Source: a virus
Taxonomy: Duplodnaviria; Heunggongvirae; Uroviricota; Caudoviricetes
Length of the DNA stretch: 6,934 nucleotides
Virus record (IMG/VR): IMGVR_UViG_2671180828_000012
Span: 1 to 6,934 of that record
Strand: one strand, 5' to 3'
Shown here one piece after another: positions 1-6,934 of the stretch. The notes below the pieces were generated by a model, which searched no databases, had not been told where the DNA came from, and worked only from the letters and a program-made list of their open reading frames with translations. The position numbers were made by a program, and so were the translations under genes. The first letter of the stretch is position 1; every line of letters begins with the position of its first letter.

Positions 1-20
1 ATCAGACAGGCAGGATTATT

Positions 21-3000
21 TCAGCGCATATCATAGAGGAGGTCATGGTGGATAAGGGAAAAGAGATTCTTGCAGTACGAAATGCAGCCAGCAACGAATA
101 TGGCGGGATAAACTGTGAGGTGCAGTTTGAAGACGCGGTGAATGAAAAAGGGGAACAGGTATGGCTGCCGTATACTGCAACGGAACACATCGTTCATGAA
201 CAACTGATTCCCCTGCGCCACAAATAACGGCGTGGTGTTGCCGTCCTCCGGGTTAATCATCGCAATACGGTCAGCCAGCAGCAGTATGTTGCTCAGGGGC
301 TGGCCATCAGTATCCTCAATCCCCGCTCCAATACCGGCAACATAGGGTATGCCATTTTTTGTTTTCTGTACCTTCAGCATGTAAAGTGCAGCAAGGTCAT
401 CATTTGTGTCCTTCTGCACGCGCTGTATCTGCTGTATGGTGGCGCTCTGGTCCTCCAGCGTTTTACTGACCGTCTGTGTGATTTCATTGCGGGTTTCGGT
501 GATGGTGGTCTTCATCTCCGCCATCTCATCCGCAAGCTGGCTGTTGTCTATCAGCTCCCACAGCCCCTGAGCCAGATGCAGTTTTCCTATTTTTTCCCGA
601 AACAGCCCCAGATACCCTTCTGCATCATTGCTGGCCCGTCCACTGGCTTCAACAAAAGCAGATTTCCCCACCAGGTTAACGCTGCGTACATAAAACCAGA
701 AATCCTTCCCGGGCTTAATGTGCGGGCCGGAGACAGTCCACTGACTGCCAGTCCCCAGATAACGGGCAGATTTTTCCACCTGTGCCGTGTTCGTGATGCG
801 TTTTTCTGAGAACCAGAATTCAAACTGTACCGTCGGGTCATACACCGCAAGACGCGGGACCGCTGTTATCTGAAAATACCCCGGCGTCAGTTCAATGGTG
901 GCGGGTTTTGCTGGCGCGTTAATCCGGAAGGTGGTGGTGGCCGGTTCGCCCTGCTGGCCATAACTGTTAATTGCCCTGACTGTCAGGGTGTATTCCCCGA
1001 GCGGCAGACCACTGAAACGATGCTCTGTATCCGCAGTGATAGCGGTGGTCACCAGACGGCTGTCTTCTCCGCTTCCGCTGGTCAGTCGCAGACTGAAGCG
1101 CACCCCCTTCACCACCCGCGGCGTGTCCCATTTCGCCTGTGCCAGATACTGGCCGTCAGCTGCGCTCACCTCCACCGTCAGGTGCTGCACTGCCGGTGGG
1201 ATGACGCTGTTCAGGGAGCCTGACTGCGGCTCAAAGCGGGCACCGTTATCCACGATGGCTTCTTTTTCCGGTACGTGCTGCACTGCCGTGATGGCAAAGG
1301 TGCCGTCCGTGTTTTCCCGGATGGAGACACAGCGGAACAGGCGACGACGCAGTGACGGCAGGGAGAGTCCCCATACACCGTATGTCTCCACACCATCAGG
1401 CAGGGTGCTGACCTGTATCCGGTCCGGCGCGGGGTGTGCAGTGATGGCCACGCTCACCGGCTTACCGCTGCCGTTAATCAGGTTCACCGTGGCGGCACCG
1501 GTCTCCGGCAGGGTCACCTCACGGTCCAGTGTCAGGGTGCGGCTGGCGGCATCGATGGACAGGACACGTCCGCCGGTCATGGTCCCGGCATAGTCGTTAT
1601 CACAGATTTCAATAATGTCACCGGGTGTGTGACGCAGCCCCTGTGACCCGAGCGTGAAATCCACCGTCTGCGTTTCCAGCAGTCCGGTCTTTATCACCCA
1701 CAGCCCGGCACGGTGGGCCTGACCGCGACTGGTGCAGCCGAACGCATCCATCTTCAGCAGGTTGCGCCCGTAGCGCAGTATGGCTTCCGGGTCTTCCACC
1801 AGTTCCGTGGAGGTCTGCCAGCCGTTCTGCGGGTCGGTGTAATTCACCTCCACCGCCGTGTGCCGGTCCTTCAGGGCACTGAAGCTGTAGCGAAACCCCA
1901 CGCCGTTATCATCCACCACCACATCGCAGTTGGTGTACGGCCACACCACATCCGACAGGCGGTCCTGAACAAACGTCAGCATCTGGCCGTTCCATACCGG
2001 CATACAGCGCATCGCCGAGCAGAAATCACTGAGAACATCCCACGCCTTACGCTGTTGTGCCAGGTACGCATTGAAGGTCATCCGCGGCTCGGTGCCCCCG
2101 AAGCCATCCGGCACCATCTGGTCGCAGTACTGCCCGATGGCATACAGCGCCCACTTGTCCACATCCGCCGCCCCCAGACGTTTTCCCATGCCGTAGCGCG
2201 GGTGAGTCAGCATGTCCCACAGACACCAGGCCGGATTGTTGCTGTATGCCGGTTTCAGACTGCCGTCCCAGATACCACTGTACGTGCGTTTTTCCGGGTC
2301 ATAGTTTGACGGCACCTGGATGATGCGACCGCGGATATGGTAGTTCACCGTCATCTGCTGACCACCAAACTGCTCCGCATCCACCTGCAGCCCCACAATG
2401 GCCGTGTTCGGGTAGCACTGTTTCACATCGATAATTTCAGTGTACGATGACCAGAGCGTTCTGTTCTGCAACTGGTCCGTGGTGCTGTCCGCCGTCTCCC
2501 TGACCATCCGGATGTTAAAGGGCCGGGGCGGCAGATTATCCAGAATCACCGAGGCCAGGAACTGTGAGGTGGTCTTGCCGTTAATGGTGACGTCCTTTTC
2601 CGTCACCCAGCGACCATTACGCTGTAACTGAATCAGAATCCGGACAGAGGAAGGATTACGGTCGCCCTTTGACGTGGTCTCCACCAGTGACTGCACCCCG
2701 AAGGTCACCCGCAGGCGGTCAATGTTCGCGGACGTAATGGTGCGCGTCACCGGTTTTGCCTTCGTCACTTCCACGCCCAGTCCGGTTTCAGCTCCGGAGG
2801 ACTCAAAGCCTTCAGGTGGTGTCTGCTCCTGCTCCCCGGCGCGCCAGACCGCCGTCACACCGTGTATCACGGGATTACCGTCCGTGCCCGTCAGCGGGGT
2901 TTTGTTCACCAGAATACTCTGCAGGCCTTTCACCGGGCCTTCTATCGGTCCCTCACCAATCGCATCAATCACACTCATCATCTGCGTGGATTTGAGATTA

Positions 3001-3047
3001 TCCTTCGCCTCACGAGGCGTGTGTGCCTTACCGCCACCTTTTCCCAT
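21..3047 (-). CDS. J: Lambda J-like tail tip / host specificity protein, C-terminally truncated (1008 aa versus ~1130 aa in lambda)
   Basis: Translation starts MGKGGGKAHTPREAKDNLKSTQ and is collinear with lambda gpJ as I recall it for ~955 residues, through FVAQGNQLFMNDVF. The last 53 residues (RCSIRQPYLFPFF...) are unrelated and end at TGA 21-23. ATG at 3047-3045 with AGGGGAAGG upstream. Confidence 0.9.
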   Translation of the reverse strand: MGKGGGKAHTPREAKDNLKSTQMMSVIDAIGEGPIEGPVKGLQSILVNKTPLTGTDGNPVIHGVTAVWRAGEQEQTPPEGFESSGAETGLGVEVTKAKPVTRTITSANIDRLRVTFGVQSLVETTSKGDRNPSSVRILIQLQRNGRWVTEKDVTINGKTTSQFLASVILDNLPPRPFNIRMVRETADSTTDQLQNRTLWSSYTEIIDVKQCYPNTAIVGLQVDAEQFGGQQMTVNYHIRGRIIQVPSNYDPEKRTYSGIWDGSLKPAYSNNPAWCLWDMLTHPRYGMGKRLGAADVDKWALYAIGQYCDQMVPDGFGGTEPRMTFNAYLAQQRKAWDVLSDFCSAMRCMPVWNGQMLTFVQDRLSDVVWPYTNCDVVVDDNGVGFRYSFSALKDRHTAVEVNYTDPQNGWQTSTELVEDPEAILRYGRNLLKMDAFGCTSRGQAHRAGLWVIKTGLLETQTVDFTLGSQGLRHTPGDIIEICDNDYAGTMTGGRVLSIDAASRTLTLDREVTLPETGAATVNLINGSGKPVSVAITAHPAPDRIQVSTLPDGVETYGVWGLSLPSLRRRLFRCVSIRENTDGTFAITAVQHVPEKEAIVDNGARFEPQSGSLNSVIPPAVQHLTVEVSAADGQYLAQAKWDTPRVVKGVRFSLRLTSGSGEDSRLVTTAITADTEHRFSGLPLGEYTLTVRAINSYGQQGEPATTTFRINAPAKPATIELTPGYFQITAVPRLAVYDPTVQFEFWFSEKRITNTAQVEKSARYLGTGSQWTVSGPHIKPGKDFWFYVRSVNLVGKSAFVEASGRASNDAEGYLGLFREKIGKLHLAQGLWELIDNSQLADEMAEMKTTITETRNEITQTVSKTLEDQSATIQQIQRVQKDTNDDLAALYMLKVQKTKNGIPYVAGIGAGIEDTDGQPLSNILLLADRIAMINPEDGNTTPLFVAQGNQLFMNDVFRCSIRQPYLFPFFIHRVFKLHLTVYPAIFVAGCISYCKNLFSLIHHDLLYDMR
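45..227 (+). CDS. Hypothetical protein, probable 5' fragment of a gene truncated at the prophage deletion junction (60 aa; last ~14 codons lie in antisense J-homologous DNA)
   Basis: ATG at 45 (or GTG at 48) directly preceded by AGAGGAGG (35-42), a strong Shine-Dalgarno. The ORF is convergent with J and runs ~45 nt past the point where J homology begins (~183), so the C-terminus is probably junk from fusion. No family recognised. Confidence 0.35.
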   Translation: MVDKGKEILAVRNAASNEYGGINCEVQFEDAVNEKGEQVWLPYTATEHIVHEQLIPLRHK

Positions 3048-3150
3048 ACAGCCTTCCCCTGAATAAATTAACCGCCACTTGCCATTCCGTACAGAAGTCG
3101 GATATCCTTCGCCCGAAAAGCATGAAACACATTTCTGCCATGCTAAAGAG

Positions 3151-3186
3151 AAACCCCGGTATCAGCAGATACCGGGGTTTTCTTTC
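3151..3186. terminator. Perfect 13-bp inverted repeat with 4-nt loop, flanked by T-rich sequence on both strands (putative bidirectional intrinsic terminator)
   Basis: aaaccccggtatc (3151-3163), loop agca, gataccggggttt (3168-3180) is a perfect 13-bp stem. It is followed by tctttc on the plus strand and by ctcttta on the minus strand. It lies ~100 nt upstream of the J start codon. Confidence 0.5.
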
Positions 3187-3252
3187 ATGCCCACCGATAA
3201 TCCTGTTGGTTAAAACCGGTAATGGCATAAAAATTCTGAATATCTTCACATT

Positions 3253-3280
3253 TTCACAAACTGACCGTGGCGCGTATAAT
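3253..3280 (+). promoter_or_regulatory. Sigma70-like promoter: -35 TTCACA (3253-3258), 16-bp spacer, -10 TATAAT (3275-3280), with an A/T-rich upstream tract
   Basis: Consensus -10 hexamer TATAAT and a 5/6 match to TTGACA at 16-bp spacing. The A/T-rich stretch 3219-3245 is UP-element-like. Predicted start near G3287. Confidence 0.4.
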
Positions 3281-3286
3281 TTCTCT

Positions 3287-3385
3287 GCGTTAATTTTTTT
3301 GTCGTGATATAAGAATAATTCCTTACACTTAATCTTCGTAACTCTCCCGCAGTTCCTGTCCGCGATCACTGCGGGATTTTTTTAT
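3287..3385 (+). ncRNA. Candidate ~100-nt small RNA (moron-like), antisense to the late tail operon in the I-J intergenic insert
   Basis: Bounded by the promoter at 3253-3280 and the intrinsic terminator at 3345-3392. No ATG-initiated ORF lies between them. The body is AU-rich with C/U-rich tracts (UUCCUUACACUU, CUCUCCC) and ends in a GC stem plus U-tract, as in Hfq-type sRNAs. Ends are predicted, not measured. Confidence 0.3.
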
Positions 3386-3392
3386 TCTTTTT
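3345..3392 (+). terminator. Rho-independent terminator: 9-bp GC-rich stem, 14-nt loop, U-tract
   Basis: tcccgcagt (3345-3353) pairs perfectly with actgcggga (3368-3376), followed by tttttttattcttttt. It is only terminator-like in the plus orientation; the minus-strand flank is not U-rich. Confidence 0.55.
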
Positions 3393-3609
3393 ACCCCTGC
3401 CGCCCGATAACCACGACCTTTCCGCCCCCGCCTTCATCACGGGTGCTGATGTCCTGGGATATACGGCGGGAGCCAACCAGCATTTCACCGGAGATATTCA
3501 CGCAGGGGAAATATCTTTCCCCCTCCGGCGTGCTTACCACGAAGCCGCACGACTCCGCAGGCGCACACCGCCGGGCATGCGCCAGAATCGCTGATTCAGT
3601 CTGTGTCAT
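3391..3609 (-). pseudogene. In-frame fusion remnant of tail assembly genes K (N-terminal ~42 aa) and I (C-terminal ~30 aa)
   Basis: ORF from ATG 3609 encodes MTQTESAILAHARRCAPAESCGFVVSTPEGERYFPCVNISGE, matching the lambda gpK N-terminus as recalled, then MLVGSRRISQDISTRDEGGGGKVVVIGRQG, which resembles the lambda gpI C-terminus (...GEMRVGSRVVSQEISTADEGDGGQVVVIGR). Stop TAA at 3393-3391. The K catalytic region and most of I are missing. Confidence 0.7.
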
Positions 3610-3619
3610 AAACCGGGAT

Positions 3620-4318
3620 TTACTGCGAAAGTTTATTAATGGAAAGGAAACCGCCAAAATTGCCGACATTCCTGCGCAGTTCACACCCGCGCATGCACTT
3701 GCTGCATCTGTCCTTACGGATATCCGTGGTGGGTTTATCGAACTCATCCGCCACAGCCCCGCCCGTGTAACCACACTCATCAGAGCGGTAGGTCCACATA
3801 CAGGTGTTCGCCAGCATGATACGACCGGGAAACAGCGCCCCGTCCGTCTCGGTCGGTGTGGCCAGCACAAACGAGGCCGTCATGGCTGTCAGCTGCGACA
3901 TCTGCTCCACCACCCAGCGGTCACTCAACTCCTGCTCCGGGTCCGCCGCCGGATTGCCCGCAACGAAATTCACCGCATCCAGAAAACGGGCATACACCCG
4001 GCGGCGGACCACCGTGGCCCCCACCAGACTCTGCAGGTCTTCCGCCATCCCGGTGACCAGACCGAACAGATTGGACACCGTCAGCGACGGTCTGGCACTG
4101 CTGCCCTTCCCGCTCATCTCAAAACCGCTGCCGTCAATCGGGTATGCCTGATATTGCCGCCCCTGCCAGGTGACCGGCTCCCCTTTTTCATTCAGCTCAT
4201 TACAGAAAAAATACCGCTCACCACCCTGCACCGTCAGGTCAATTTCCCAGAGTACCACCCGCGGTGACTGCTCTGATTTAACCGACTCGCTCAGACTTTC
4301 TTCGTGAATATCCTGCAT
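3620..4318 (-). CDS. L: Lambda L-like tail tip assembly protein (232 aa)
   Basis: MQDIHEESLSE...VVLWEIDLT...GGERYFFCNE...GNFGGFLSINKLSQ is full length and collinear with lambda gpL. The ATG overlaps the M stop codon (ATGA), as in lambda. Confidence 0.93.
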   Translation of the reverse strand: MQDIHEESLSESVKSEQSPRVVLWEIDLTVQGGERYFFCNELNEKGEPVTWQGRQYQAYPIDGSGFEMSGKGSSARPSLTVSNLFGLVTGMAEDLQSLVGATVVRRRVYARFLDAVNFVAGNPAADPEQELSDRWVVEQMSQLTAMTASFVLATPTETDGALFPGRIMLANTCMWTYRSDECGYTGGAVADEFDKPTTDIRKDRCSKCMRGCELRRNVGNFGGFLSINKLSQ

Positions 4319-4647
4319 CAGTTCACCACCTGCTTAAACTCCGCGCTGAACTCAACGCGCAACATCCCGACCCGCGCAGACCACCCGGCACAGGTCACCT
4401 TTATCTGCCGGTATGCATAGGGTGGCTTCCACAAAAATGCCTTCCAGCCACCGTGCTCTGCCAGGAACGCTTCCAGATGCCGGGCCTCCTCCCGGGTCAC
4501 GGAAAGCGTCACCCTGTATGTTTTCAGGTCAGCATTCAGCCCTGCCGCCATACGCTGTGAGTACCCGTCACCAAAACGCACTTCACGCACCGATGGCTGC
4601 GAGTTCACCTCCATATCCGGCTTCACTTTCCAGCGAAAGGTTTTCAT
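4318..4647 (-). CDS. M: Lambda M-like tail tip assembly protein (109 aa)
   Basis: MKTFRWKVKPDMEV...VRFGDGYSQR...MLRVEFSAEFKQVVN is collinear with lambda gpM. The start overlaps the H' stop (ATGA) and the stop overlaps the L start. Confidence 0.93.
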   Translation of the reverse strand: MKTFRWKVKPDMEVNSQPSVREVRFGDGYSQRMAAGLNADLKTYRVTLSVTREEARHLEAFLAEHGGWKAFLWKPPYAYRQIKVTCAGWSARVGMLRVEFSAEFKQVVN

Positions 4648-5840
4648 CCACCGCTCCCTGATAACATACCGCCATCACGCAACTGCAGCCGGAGTTCATC
4701 CTGTGCCCCCTTGCGGGCCATCTCATACACCGCTTTCATCAGCTGCGGCCCTGCCCGCCCGTTGGGGCCGTCGTTCTGAATCACCACGTGATTGTTCTGA
4801 TTAAAATTAATGCCTTCCGCCCGCCGCATCTGCGCCGGACTTCCGGCACCGCCGACATAACCACCTTCCGCATAGCCCCGCATCAGGCGGTACAGATTGC
4901 CGACACCAATCCGGCTGGTCGCCTCCTTCGTGAAGACAAACTCCCCGCGATGAACAATCCCCGCAGGTTCATATTTACCCCCCGTCCCCGTAAATCCCCC
5001 GGTCGCGAAATGGAAGTTCGCCGCCGCAGCCTGAATGGCCGTCCCCGTGGAGGCAGACGCACCACCACCGAAAGCACCGCCAATGGCGCTGCCGATACTC
5101 CCGACTATCCCCACCATCGCCTGCTTCAGAAAAATCTCTGTCAGCATGGACAGCACAGAACGGGTGAAACCACGCCAGTTCTGTTCGCTGCCGGTCAGCA
5201 TCGCTGCCATATTCTGTGCAATACCGTCAAAGGTCTGCGTGGCCGCGTTTTTAACCTGCGAAAAACTGTCCGTCGCACTTTCCGCCCACTCGCCCCAGCC
5301 GGACTTCATCCCGGCCATCCAGCTTCCACGAAGCTGCTCCTCCGCAGACCAGGTGTTCTTCAGTGCAGATGTGGCCTTCGCCAGCGCAGCCGGATTATCA
5401 CCGTACACCTCACGAAGGCGCTGCTCTTCCGACTCCCGCTGCGCCTGACGGTCGGTGAGTCCGCGGGCTTTTGCGCTGATTGCCGCCTGCTTCGCGCTCT
5501 GCTGCTGTTCAAACCGCGCCGCCTGCTGTGCCAGCTCATTCAGCCGTTTCTGGTGTTCAATCTTGTCGCCCAGCTCAGCCAGCTGGCGTTTGTACTCCAG
5601 CGTTTCTTTCTCATGGGCCAGCAGGGATTTTTCCTGCTCAGATACCATGCGGCATTTAGCGGCATTCATCGTACACTCAACGGTTAGCTCTTCATTCGTG
5701 GCATTCACCTGAAAGGTCCGGGAGTGTAATTGCGTACATTTACCACTGAACGAACCTTCAACAAGAACACGACCACGCTGCAAAATACGGAACGGAATTG
5801 TTCCCTGAAAAGGCTTTACGGTTACCAGTAATTTCTTCAT
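4644..5840 (-). CDS. H: Chimeric tape-measure protein: foreign ~61-aa N-terminal module fused in frame to the C-terminal ~335 aa of a lambda H-like tape measure (398 aa)
   Basis: From SEQEKSLLAHEKETLEYKRQLAELG to the end (...KAVYEMARKGAQDELRLQLRDGGMLSGSGG) it is collinear with the lambda gpH C-terminal third as recalled. The N-terminus MKKLLVTVKPFQGTIPFRILQRGRVLVEGSFSGKCTQLHSRTFQVNATNEELTVECTMNAAKCRM is unrelated. ATG at 5840 has GGAG 7 nt upstream. The listed ORF start at 5858 is a TTG and less likely. Confidence 0.8.
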   Translation of the reverse strand: MKKLLVTVKPFQGTIPFRILQRGRVLVEGSFSGKCTQLHSRTFQVNATNEELTVECTMNAAKCRMVSEQEKSLLAHEKETLEYKRQLAELGDKIEHQKRLNELAQQAARFEQQQSAKQAAISAKARGLTDRQAQRESEEQRLREVYGDNPAALAKATSALKNTWSAEEQLRGSWMAGMKSGWGEWAESATDSFSQVKNAATQTFDGIAQNMAAMLTGSEQNWRGFTRSVLSMLTEIFLKQAMVGIVGSIGSAIGGAFGGGASASTGTAIQAAAANFHFATGGFTGTGGKYEPAGIVHRGEFVFTKEATSRIGVGNLYRLMRGYAEGGYVGGAGSPAQMRRAEGINFNQNNHVVIQNDGPNGRAGPQLMKAVYEMARKGAQDELRLQLRDGGMLSGSGG

Positions 5841-5863
5841 GCATTCTCCGGATAACAAAAATA

Positions 5864-6331
5864 CTAGTTAATACACTGAGTGCGGATATAGTCCTGCGCC
5901 CCTTCCAGTTGCTTCTGCATTGTCATCAACCGCTCTCTGAGGGTGAAATAATCCCGTTCAGCGGTGTCTGCCAGTCGGGGGCCGGTTGCATTATCCACGC
6001 GGGCGGTGCCGGTGGCTTCACGCACGGAACCTGGACAGGTGGCGTTGATACGCAGGCTGCGGCGACCAGCGGCAACGTCAGCGCGCAGAGTTTCATTTTC
6101 AGCTCTCGCATCGGCTAACTCCTTTGTGTATTTTTCATCCAGCGCAACAACATCACGCTGACGCTGCTGCATGTCAGTAATGGTTGTGTTTGCCAGCTCC
6201 AGCTCTCTGGCTTTTTTATCGCGCTGCGCTTTGTAGGTGATGGCGTTATCGCGGTAATGATTCAGCCCCAGACTAAGCACACCACAGGCTACCAGCAGGA
6301 CAATAATCACCACACACAGAACACGGTTCAT
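5864..6331 (-). CDS. Rz: Rz-like i-spanin (inner-membrane spanin subunit, 155 aa)
   Basis: [48 protein letters not shown]...[29 protein letters not shown] is collinear with lambda Rz: N-terminal transmembrane segment then coiled-coil periplasmic domain. ATG at 6331; the longer ORF listed to 6415 is an upstream extension. Confidence 0.9.
5926..6111 (-). CDS. Rz1: Rz1-like o-spanin (outer-membrane lipoprotein), fully embedded in the +1 frame of Rz
   Basis: [61 protein letters not shown] has a signal peptide with lipobox-like AAAC and a proline-rich body, and is collinear with lambda Rz1. Confidence 0.85.
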
Positions 6332-6332
6332 A

Positions 6333-6419
6333 TCACCACCAACGGATTGCCCAGACCAGAACAGCAATGGCCACAATACGAATGGCAAATGCCATTGCCC
6401 GAATAAGTTCAGCACTCAT
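6333..6419 (-). CDS. Possible 28-aa hydrophobic peptide ([28 protein letters not shown]) whose stop lies 1 nt before the Rz start
   Basis: ATG at 6419-6417, TGA at 6335-6333, Rz ATG at 6331. The product is essentially one transmembrane helix. The RBS is weak (AAAAAG) and the frame is open a further ~30 codons upstream without an ATG, so it may be a gene remnant. Confidence 0.2.
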
Positions 6420-6430
6420 CTTTTTAAAGT

Positions 6431-6613
6431 TCACGATTTCAGCGCAATGACCAGTTTTGCCAGCCCATACAGTATCGGAGACACAGCGATACCAACCGCC
6501 ACCCACTTAATAGCAAAAGCCAGCGCTCTGCTGATGTCATCAGTTACTGGCGCTTTCAGTTCAAGGCCGTTTTTCATAGTCAACCTCAACAGAATTCGTT
6601 TATACTTTTCCAT
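6431..6613 (-). CDS. Small tail-anchored membrane protein (60 aa) at the position where a lambdoid lysis cassette carries its holin; family not recognised
   Basis: ATG at 6613-6611 preceded by AAGGGAGAAC. Product MEKYKRILLRLTMKNGLELKAPVTDDISRALAFAIKWVAVGIAVSPILYGLAKLVIALKS has a basic soluble N-terminus and a single C-terminal transmembrane helix. Stop TGA at 6433-6431. It does not resemble lambda S or phage 21 S as I recall them. Confidence 0.45.
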   Translation of the reverse strand: MEKYKRILLRLTMKNGLELKAPVTDDISRALAFAIKWVAVGIAVSPILYGLAKLVIALKS

Positions 6614-6646
6614 GTTCTCCCTTGCCTTATCCAAGGTCAGAAACAC

Positions 6647-6690
6647 AAAACCCCGCTTGCAGCCAACAAACGGGGTTTTTACTTTTATTC
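6647..6690. terminator. GC-rich hairpin flanked by T-runs on both strands (bidirectional intrinsic terminator), ~30 nt upstream of the 60-aa ORF
   Basis: aaaaccccg (6647-6655) pairs with cggggtttt (6671-6679) around a 15-nt loop, followed by ttacttttattc on plus and by ttttgtgtttctgacc on minus. Its position relative to the lysis genes recalls lambda tR', but no convincing upstream late promoter was found. Confidence 0.4.
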
Positions 6691-6702
6691 ACTTAGTTTT
6701 TG

Positions 6703-6934
6703 TTAGTTCGCAGGATTTCGTGTTATCCGTCCGTGTGAGCAAACCGCATTTTTCAGCAAAATATTCTGCTTATCTGTCAATTCCCCAGCACGCCAGCGCA
6801 CTCTCCTGGTCGCGACGGGATACCTGACCGTAACAGTTGTTTGAGCGAATACGGCAGTCTCTGCCACCGTCCTTAATCCACCAGCGAATCGCTTCGCATG
6901 CTCCCCTGCGATCACCTGCATTAATTCGTCTGTA
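6703..6934 (-). CDS. 3' end of an ORF entering from beyond the right edge (at least 76 codons); unknown function
   Basis: Open frame from the window edge to TAA at 6705-6703 (...ELTDKQNILLKNAVCSHGRITRNPAN). In a lambdoid layout this slot would hold the Q antiterminator or a nin-region gene, but I see no Q-like zinc-finger motif. The internal ATG at 6921 has no Shine-Dalgarno. Confidence 0.25.
   Translation of the reverse strand, partial: TDELMQVIAGEHAKRFAGGLRTVAETAVFAQTTVTVRYPVATRRVRWRAGELTDKQNILLKNAVCSHGRITRNPAN

Follow-up and report, generated by a model that had tools for sequence, protein, structure and literature searches.

A probable allele of the PasB/EcOnc22-24 small RNA family, encoded antisense to the tail operon between genes I and J of a decayed lambdoid prophage

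The closest described relatives of the element treated here, an AT-rich insert between the tail genes I and J of a lambdoid prophage remnant (IMG/VR record IMGVR_UViG_2671180828_000012, positions 1-6,934; identical to the whole 6,934-bp draft contig CDQN01000124.1 and referred to below as the window), are two sets of prophage-encoded small RNAs (sRNAs). PasB (E2348CN_0006) is an 83-nt sRNA of prophage PP6 in the enteropathogenic Escherichia coli (EPEC) O127:H6 strain E2348/69, encoded on the minus strand of NC_011601 at 1466343-1466261 between E2348C_1436 and E2348C_1437. It was validated by Northern blotting with the probe AATCCCGCAGTGATCGCGGAGCT, was strongly reduced in a delta-hfq background (log2 fold changes of -6.8 and -2.4), took part in 37 interactions recovered by ligation and sequencing of interacting RNAs (RIL-seq) and reached a higher level in the non-activating condition (Pearl Mizrahi et al. 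2021, Sci Adv, PMC8550237). The partners of Pas sRNAs reported in the same study include core and virulence mRNAs. EcOnc22, EcOnc23 and EcOnc24 originate from the prophages Sp15 (encoding Shiga toxin Stx1), Sp14 and Sp11, respectively, of the enterohaemorrhagic E. coli (EHEC) O157:H7 strain Sakai. They are mutually homologous, lie on the plus strand, measure about 85 nt on Northern blots, coincide with a peak of Hfq crosslinking and analysis of cDNA (CRAC) and are destabilised in a delta-hfq mutant (Tree et al. 2014, Mol Cell, PMC4104026, Table S2). The target of EcOnc22 was listed as unknown in a 2021 review. An EHEC homologue is not listed for PasB in the PasB table (PMC8550237), and in the PasB and EcOnc literature we found neither a link between the two names nor a further name for the locus. 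The probe and sequence matches described below nevertheless indicate that PasB and EcOnc22-24 represent allelic forms of a single gene at the same phage locus.

The insert of the window is a real sRNA gene with its own promoter and terminator; as a divergent allele of known Hfq-dependent prophage sRNAs, it is an element of a kind already known. We assign positions 3227-3383 to the PasB/EcOnc22-24 family as allele W, a member of a common and apparently undescribed allele class. With a probability of roughly 0.8, we read this region as an autonomous gene for an Hfq-bound sRNA that acts in trans by base pairing. Homology, position, orientation, promoter, terminator and the lack of an open reading frame (ORF) were observed directly in the window; a discrete RNA of 83-85 nt in lysogens (by Northern blot, for the alleles E and S of PasB and Sakai, respectively), Hfq-dependent stability and numerous partners are properties of the homologues. 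An initial annotation of the window, made from the letters alone, had proposed a transcript of about 100 nt antisense to the tail operon and had raised Hfq association as a possibility. The validated sRNAs in the same I-J slot and orientation support the first proposal, and the Hfq dependence of both PasB and EcOnc22 supports the second.

The position of the homologues was determined for each of them. PasB resides in the I-J gap of its prophage on the strand opposite to the tail genes, its end lying 5 nt from the stop of I (locus L002: sRNA at 4344-4262 on the minus strand, end of I at 4256, start of J at 4497). All three EcOnc peaks fall into I-J gaps as well, on the strand opposite to I and J (tail genes on the minus strand), and the three Sakai gaps are identical in sequence. 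In the window, the predicted RNA has the same orientation and its 3' end (3383) lies 7 nt from the stop of the I remnant. Hence, in all these cases the RNA is transcribed against the tail genes and ends beside the stop of I.

An alignment of the window with PasB showed identity in 64 of 89 columns. Both sequences have in common the A/T-rich upstream element, the two promoter hexamers with their spacing, the initially transcribed TGCGTTA, the core UCCUU(N)ACA(N)U(N)AUCUUC as well as a 25-nt terminator arm, identical in both and followed by U7; the predicted sizes are also similar. Window positions 3359-3378 correspond to the PasB Northern probe in reverse complement. PasB differs from W in its 5' third, in the stretch beside the terminator, where its seed has been proposed, and, by 5 nt, in the length of the terminator loop. 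With blastn, PasB matched the window by the terminator only (25 nt, E 5e-9), and EcOnc22 by 75 nt at 73% (E 8e-8). Apart from slot and orientation, EcOnc22-24 share with W the core (UUAAUCUUC), the terminator (CUCUCCCGCAG...CUGCGGGAUUUUUUU) and the position of an (ARN)3 run; they differ by an overall identity of 72%, by the replacement of the second TTCACA, by the -10 sequence AATAAT and by an upstream module of another type (U2, see below). The EcOnc22-24 Northern probe GGGAGAGAACGATGAAGATTAACTGATGAGTTA settled the identity of the Sakai RNAs independently of coordinates, its reverse complement matching 23 consecutive nucleotides of the Sakai cassette body GTTAATCTTCATCGTTCTCTCCC. The EcOnc peaks had appeared to be shifted from the cassette by 118-150 nt. 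This is explained by the version of the Sakai record: the coordinates of Tree et al. (loci L122-L124) are offset by about 128-146 nt relative to NC_002695.2, which was checked on AgvB. When mapped by their published coordinates onto NC_002695.2, EcOnc22-24 would therefore fall over the upstream hairpin and not over the sRNA.

The features of the locus are compiled in Table 1. The sigma70-like promoter and the 9-bp terminator stem with its U-tract, both of which had been noted in the initial annotation, were present as described. The hexamers are identical to those of E2348/69 PasB, and the -10 region is kept in nearly all alleles. The A/T-rich region upstream of the -35 hexamer was nearly invariant over 37 unique alleles from 120 loci, while the DNA further upstream swaps between unrelated modules; matches to Stx2c phages start at query position 180, which is window position 3227. 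A direct repeat, TTCACA-TT-TTCACA (3245-3258), overlaps the -35 hexamer. It is kept in W and E alleles and half-replaced in Sakai, and could be a site for a regulator, PasB being more abundant in the non-activating growth condition. An RNA of 82 nt would result from a start at about 3302, the counterpart of the 5' end annotated for PasB. As had been claimed for the cargo, the 97 nt hold no usable ORF: there is no ATG, and no NTG-initiated frame exceeds two codons. The C/U-rich stretches noted earlier were also found (UUCCUU...AAUCUUC), in a body predicted to be unstructured except for the terminator. Taken together, the window combines a 9-bp stem, a U7 tail (a proximal-face module for Hfq calls for at least six U), an unstructured body and an AAG-AAU-AAU run, as expected of Hfq-dependent trans-acting sRNAs. 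One ARN run of at least three repeats occurs in each allele class, located at nt 22-25 from the predicted start and differing in sequence (AAG-AAU-AAU in W, AGU-AAC-AAA-AAC-AAC in E, AAA-AAU-AAC in S). The core is the best conserved part of the body among the W, E, S and E. albertii alleles, and we infer that it serves as seed or as Hfq contact. The 7-bp terminator core CCCGCAG/CUGCGGG and U7 are invariant in all alleles.

Table 1. Coordinates of the sRNA gene, of the insert that contains it and of the adjoining tail genes in the window
Feature	Position	Strand	Remarks
A/T-rich region 5' of -35, ATAAAAATTCTGAATATCTTCACA	3227-3252	+	holds the first copy of the TTCACA-TT-TTCACA direct repeat
Sigma70-type promoter	3253-3280	+	-35 TTCACA 3253-3258, 16-bp spacer, -10 TATAAT 3275-3280; 11/12 consensus positions
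Predicted primary sRNA, W allele, 97 nt	3287-3383	+	start placed from the -10 hexamer
(ARN)3 run AAG-AAU-AAU	3311-3319	+	candidate Hfq distal-face motif; putative function
Conserved single-stranded core UUCCUUACACUUAAUCUUC	3319-3337	+	anti-Shine-Dalgarno-like UCCUU, then AAUCUUC
Allele-specific stretch GUAACUC	3338-3344	+	adjoins the terminator on its 5' side; site proposed for the PasB seed
Intrinsic terminator	3345-3383	+	TCCCGCAGT (3345-3353) pairs perfectly with ACTGCGGGA (3368-3376); 14-nt loop; U7 3377-3383
Left module of the insert, U1 type	3048-3226		recombines independently of the sRNA gene
Bidirectional-terminator-shaped hairpin	3145-3186 (core 3151-3163/3168-3180)	both	between sRNA promoter and J start
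J, tail tip, truncated to 1008 aa	21-3047	-	Pfam GpJ domains; comparison with intact prophage L001
K'-'I fusion remnant	3391-3609	-	3' 100 nt of I (3391-3490) and 5' 119 nt of K (3491-3609)

The start of J (3045-3047, minus strand) and the stop of the I remnant (3391-3393) enclose a gap of 343 bp. The initial annotation had arrived at about 340 bp and had given a spacing of a few tens of nucleotides for lambda, in which the gap indeed amounts to 60 bp (end of I at 15444, start of J at 15505). The G+C content, estimated by hand as one-third for 3187-3344, was computed as 0.354 for this part and as 0.416 for 3048-3393, versus 0.575 for J. The moron concept is said to go back to Juhala et al. in 2000, with lom and bor of lambda as the classical lambdoid examples. 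A moron layout had been suggested for the insert and agrees with what was found: extra DNA between conserved genes (343 vs 60 bp) with its own promoter and terminator and a deviant G+C content (0.35-0.42 vs 0.58), which is exchanged as a module. Like the lambdoid morons, it is additional low-G+C DNA absent from lambda at this place, and it shares with them expression in the prophage, for this sRNA seen in homologues. It differs from them in that the cargo is a non-coding RNA and not a protein, and in its orientation against the operon that contains it.

Allele diversity was studied with 119 IMG/VR loci, which were found via the shared terminator pattern, and the reference loci; together they yielded 37 unique alleles. 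Three classes of the body were distinguished: W (window), E (PasB and PasB-2) and S (Sakai; L077 is S-like). PasB-2 corresponds to the C27A variant in Zhu et al. (bioRxiv 10.64898/2026.05.13.724894). Global pairwise identities were 74% for W-E, 72% for W-S and 73% for E-S, and the hybrid or intermediate alleles L051, L062 and L077 bridge the classes. The promoter region, the -10 hexamer, TGCGTTA, the core, CCCGCAG...CUGCGGG and U7 are invariant or nearly so; variation is seen in the 5' third and in the 7-12 nt that adjoin the terminator on its 5' side. With an invariant promoter, core and terminator next to a 5' region and flanks that vary and recombine, the pattern of conservation is typical of a functional sRNA gene. 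A body variant of a fourth kind, W-like and with a shorter terminator loop, was seen in E. albertii NBRC 107761 (L128 1764-1872). In this copy the conserved promoter region is replaced by unrelated sequence, so that it either has no promoter or uses another one.

The initial annotation had treated 3048-3393 as one insert. The promoter- and terminator-bounded RNA stood up to analysis; the single element did not. The left module (U1 in the window) contains a hairpin of -27 to -28 kcal/mol (z -6 and -5), which on both strands is preceded by an A-run and followed by a T-run. The U2 module of E2348/69 and Sakai carries an unrelated hairpin, CAGGCAYC...GRTGCCTG, followed in tail sense by TTGTTTTTG. 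One or the other type was located between the sRNA promoter and J in 105 of 111 IMG/VR loci. The combinations of module and body at the 111 loci included U1-W (46), U1-E (24), U2-E (29) and U2-W (5), and phage PPompW has the window-type left module in front of a PasB-2 body. Because all four combinations occur, we concluded that the insert consists of two independently recombining modules. The hairpin at 3145-3186 might insulate, or might render J dependent on Q antitermination. Upstream of this hairpin, a weak promoter-like site was observed (TTGCCA-18-TATCCT; 3079-3108, plus strand, 9/12 consensus positions); if active, it would give rise to a second plus-strand RNA of about 78 nt, antisense to the leader of J.

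The gap sequence was detected in 1,659 of 5,426 complete E. coli genomes, always unannotated between a 'tail assembly protein' (I) and gpJ, and in 52 deposited phage genomes including Stx1a, Stx2a and Stx2c phages. The BLASTN comparison suggested in the initial annotation thus disclosed the same cassette in other lambdoid prophages. It did not turn out to be a fragment of a known gene or insertion sequence. In the intact phages and prophages that share the sequence, no gene is annotated or called there, and the ORFs crossing the gap have no Pfam match. With 3227-3383 as query, W-type cassettes (best place at least 90%) were found in 853 of the 5,426 genomes (475 + 170 + 208), about 16%, many of them from human isolates. 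Strains with a W allele include E. coli ML35 (NZ_CP025747.1, 2110406-2110751), MS7163 and S1-CAM-01-A. A further 810 records matched the query at about 81%, and we infer that these are E-type bodies behind a U1-like upstream flank. The E2348/69 cassette was present in 1,099 genomes. A published survey of PasB used the 83-nt E2348/69 query, blastn with word size 28 and a query coverage above 75%, and obtained 1,158 hits whose variants differ by a few nucleotides only (Zhu, Shabalina and Storz 2026, bioRxiv 10.64898/2026.05.13.724894). At word size 28 this query gave no match with the window; at word size 11 it matched only the 25-nt terminator, with 30% coverage and a longest common word of 25 nt. 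Due to the method of the survey, and as its count resembles our E-type count, the W class is very probably missing from the published numbers.

A scan of the genome collection with the pattern CCCGCAG-N(9-18)-CTGCGGGATTTTTTT was swamped by generic terminators from unrelated phyla. Outside E. coli, profile filtering of the matches listed left two loci of E. albertii and one contig of a metagenome-assembled genome. One E. albertii copy is W-type, and the other is the copy without the conserved promoter. The metagenomic contig, labelled Collinsella sp. (L229 3958-4105), has the left module of the window type beside a W-type cassette that is nearly identical, and is almost certainly an E. coli prophage contig that was binned into the wrong genome.

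We propose that a strong, probably constitutive sigma70 promoter would produce an RNA of about 82-97 nt, which Hfq would bind through the U7-tailed terminator and the (ARN)3 run. The unstructured C/U-rich body (UUCCUU...AAUCUUC and the stretch beside the terminator) would then pair in trans with mRNAs of host and prophage, purine-rich ribosome-binding regions being the probable sites, and thereby change their translation or stability. Occlusion of the ribosome-binding site is the simplest model, since Shine-Dalgarno sequences of the AAGGA type and the conserved UCCUU are complementary to each other. For PasB, the seed was proposed to lie just 5' of the terminator (Zhu et al., bioRxiv 10.64898/2026.05.13.724894). 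The PasB octamer UGUCUGUC (nt 58-65) is perfectly complementary to GACAGACA (NC_011601 743510-743517, plus strand) at the edge of a RIL-seq partner, an intergenic RNA next to pasA (locus L251; one pair among the rows listed). W (GUAACUCUC) and S (AUCGUUCUCUC) do not possess this octamer. As the stretch beside the terminator differs between W, E and S, the three alleles probably have partly different sets of targets, a prediction made from their sequences.

Several observations weigh against reading the locus as a trans-acting sRNA gene. All RNA, Hfq and partner data come from homologues, the W allele is only 72-74% identical to both validated alleles, and validated targets or phenotypes are not known from any PasB/EcOnc22-24 RNA. 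The sole clue to a seed is the octamer complementarity mentioned above, which was reached by 8% of shuffles in the k-mer test. Duplex prediction with the W RNA against the translation-initiation regions of the prophage genes for the tail fibre, lom, J, I, K, L, M, H, T and G (ten in all) did not make any ribosome-binding region of the prophage tail genes stand out (all |z| <1.6). Long-window duplex prediction was little informative, likewise for the RIL-seq partner of PasB, and the k-mer complementarity test was used instead. The start derived from the -10 hexamer lies about 15 nt upstream of the 5' end annotated for PasB, and the 5' end is uncertain by about this distance. Neither the promoter scan (3 sites vs 1.1 +/- 1.1 in shuffles) nor the terminator scan (1 site vs 1.0 +/- 1.1) was significant alone. 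Finally, RNAalifold with ten diverse alleles predicted only the invariant 7-bp terminator stem and no base-pair covariation. The latter is due to the invariance of the stem, and structure consequently adds no evidence beyond the terminator. Since the consensus scans remain within shuffle expectation, the case must rest on comparative and experimental evidence. It is lifted above chance by the conservation of exactly these elements across diverged alleles and by the experiments on two homologues.

AgvB and AsxR are other short, Hfq-bound, prophage-encoded and moron-like non-coding RNAs of pathogenic E. coli. They differ from the I-J sRNA by their site downstream of PR', convergent with stx or moron cargo, and by mimicking mRNA targets of GcvB and FnrS, for which nothing speaks in the case of the I-J sRNA. 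Identity with AgvB or AsxR (RF02702, RF02703) was rejected because of the different site and the lack of a covariance-model match. A scan of the window with Rfam 15 (E up to 1) gave no match in the I-J gap. Likewise, no Rfam family was found over the Sakai I-J loci (E up to 0.01), while the same search recovered AgvB in a control locus.

Four other explanations of the insert were weighed. Its main role may be exerted in cis, with the RNA and/or the convergent promoter acting on the late tail-operon transcript, which we regard as unlikely. A long duplex with the perfectly complementary I-J spacer right after the stop of I could result in RNase III cleavage or changed expression of J. Colliding promoters, aided by the terminator-like tail-sense hairpin at 3145-3186, would keep unscheduled transcription in lysogens from reaching J, lom and the tail-fibre genes. 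Such a role is consistent with the antisense orientation and position, strictly kept in every allele and genome examined, with the widespread GC-rich hairpin between sRNA promoter and J, and with the tail-sense T-run behind it in the two modules examined in detail, though their hairpins are unrelated in sequence. However, PasB was found as a hub, with 37 partners in trans, in lysogens that were not induced and whose late operon is silent. Moreover, the tail operon of the window is destroyed and the cassette is intact, so that a purely phage-directed role cannot explain the retention here. Roles in cis and in trans could coexist. We give little credence to the sRNA being a sponge, or anti-sRNA, that titrates another Hfq-bound RNA as AgvB and AsxR do. 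The retrieved RIL-seq pair of PasB (among the rows listed) is a non-coding intergenic RNA by pasA and not an mRNA, and prophage anti-sRNAs are established in the same strains; against this stand the missing Rfam match to AgvB/AsxR in the window and the Sakai I-J loci, the different slot of these RNAs at the PR' moron site, and the core and virulence mRNAs among the reported Pas partners (PMC8550237).

It is very doubtful that the W cassette is only a terminator or insulator relic with inactive or irrelevant hexamers and no stable RNA. Such a relic would agree with promoter and terminator scans within chance expectation, with the expression of W being deduced through homologues and not directly, and with the E. 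albertii copy that has no conserved promoter. The hexamers and their surroundings are, however, identical to those of the expressed PasB gene, eleven of twelve positions fit the consensus, and across the alleles the promoter is better conserved than the sRNA body. A protein-coding gap is hardly tenable and was rejected. A 113-aa ORF (minus strand, 3028-3369) and a 94-aa ORF (plus strand, 3023-3307) exist mechanically, and in one phage record the match is annotated as a 'hypothetical protein'. Yet neither ORF has a Pfam match, inter-allele differences within them such as 1-nt changes in the T-run and other indels that are not multiples of three break the frames, RefSeq and the gene caller of the collection call nothing in the gap, and both ORFs span the freely recombining module boundaries.

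The surroundings of the cassette are those of a decayed prophage. The window represents a lambdoid tail region on the minus strand with J, a K'-'I remnant, L, M, a C-terminal part of the tape-measure gene and Rz; among the complete RefSeq genomes of E. coli, none matches it over more than 85% of its length. The designation of an I remnant in the initial annotation was right: a deletion of 1,103 bp (L001 6444-7546; junction at 3490/3491) removed most of I and K and fused the 5' part of K to the 3' part of I. The product shows a weak Prok-JAB match. An inverted tail-fibre fragment (1-185; 185 bp, 100% identical to L001 616-432) has taken the place of the 3' end of J. The tape-measure gene H has no 5' half and abuts Rz (5864-6415), all head genes are gone, and the lysis region is also shortened (rearranged end at about 5645-6934). 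In the latter region a weak Rfam match to the rimP leader was observed (6615-6704, plus strand; 27.6 bits vs a gathering score of 47, E 0.27), which is most likely a chance match to a generic lysis-region terminator made up of a GC hairpin and a U-run. A metagenomic relative possesses the same truncated J with intact H, K and I, so that the decay was stepwise. Despite the surrounding deletions, the sRNA cassette is 100% identical to the copy of intact prophages. PasB was remarked to occur more often outside recognisable prophages (Zhu et al., bioRxiv 10.64898/2026.05.13.724894); the retention of the cassette in this decayed prophage fits that remark and is no proof of selection.

Our results are useful to specialists and not surprising; a known family was rediscovered correctly from raw sequence. 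What they add is the link between PasB and EcOnc22-24, at least three roughly equidistant allele classes, the blind spot of the survey and the conserved hairpin as a partner module. Any target or phenotype for PasB/EcOnc22-24 would be new. The prevalence and host range of the PasB family are probably under-estimated because the W class is invisible at the published BLAST settings, and the cassette outlives its prophage. As a tentative idea with a small chance of being correct, the I-J insert may be a conserved two-part control module of lambdoid phages, composed of an antisense sRNA with an allele-specific seed and a tail-sense terminator hairpin, with W as an unrecognised regulator. If this is true, the hairpin and the sRNA would make the expression of J depend on Q antitermination and RNA processing, and the seeds of W, E and S would rewire host regulation differently in extraintestinal pathogenic E. 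coli (ExPEC)/commensal, EPEC and EHEC lineages, respectively. W would then have its own set of targets in about one sixth of E. coli genomes and would be kept by the host after decay of the phage.

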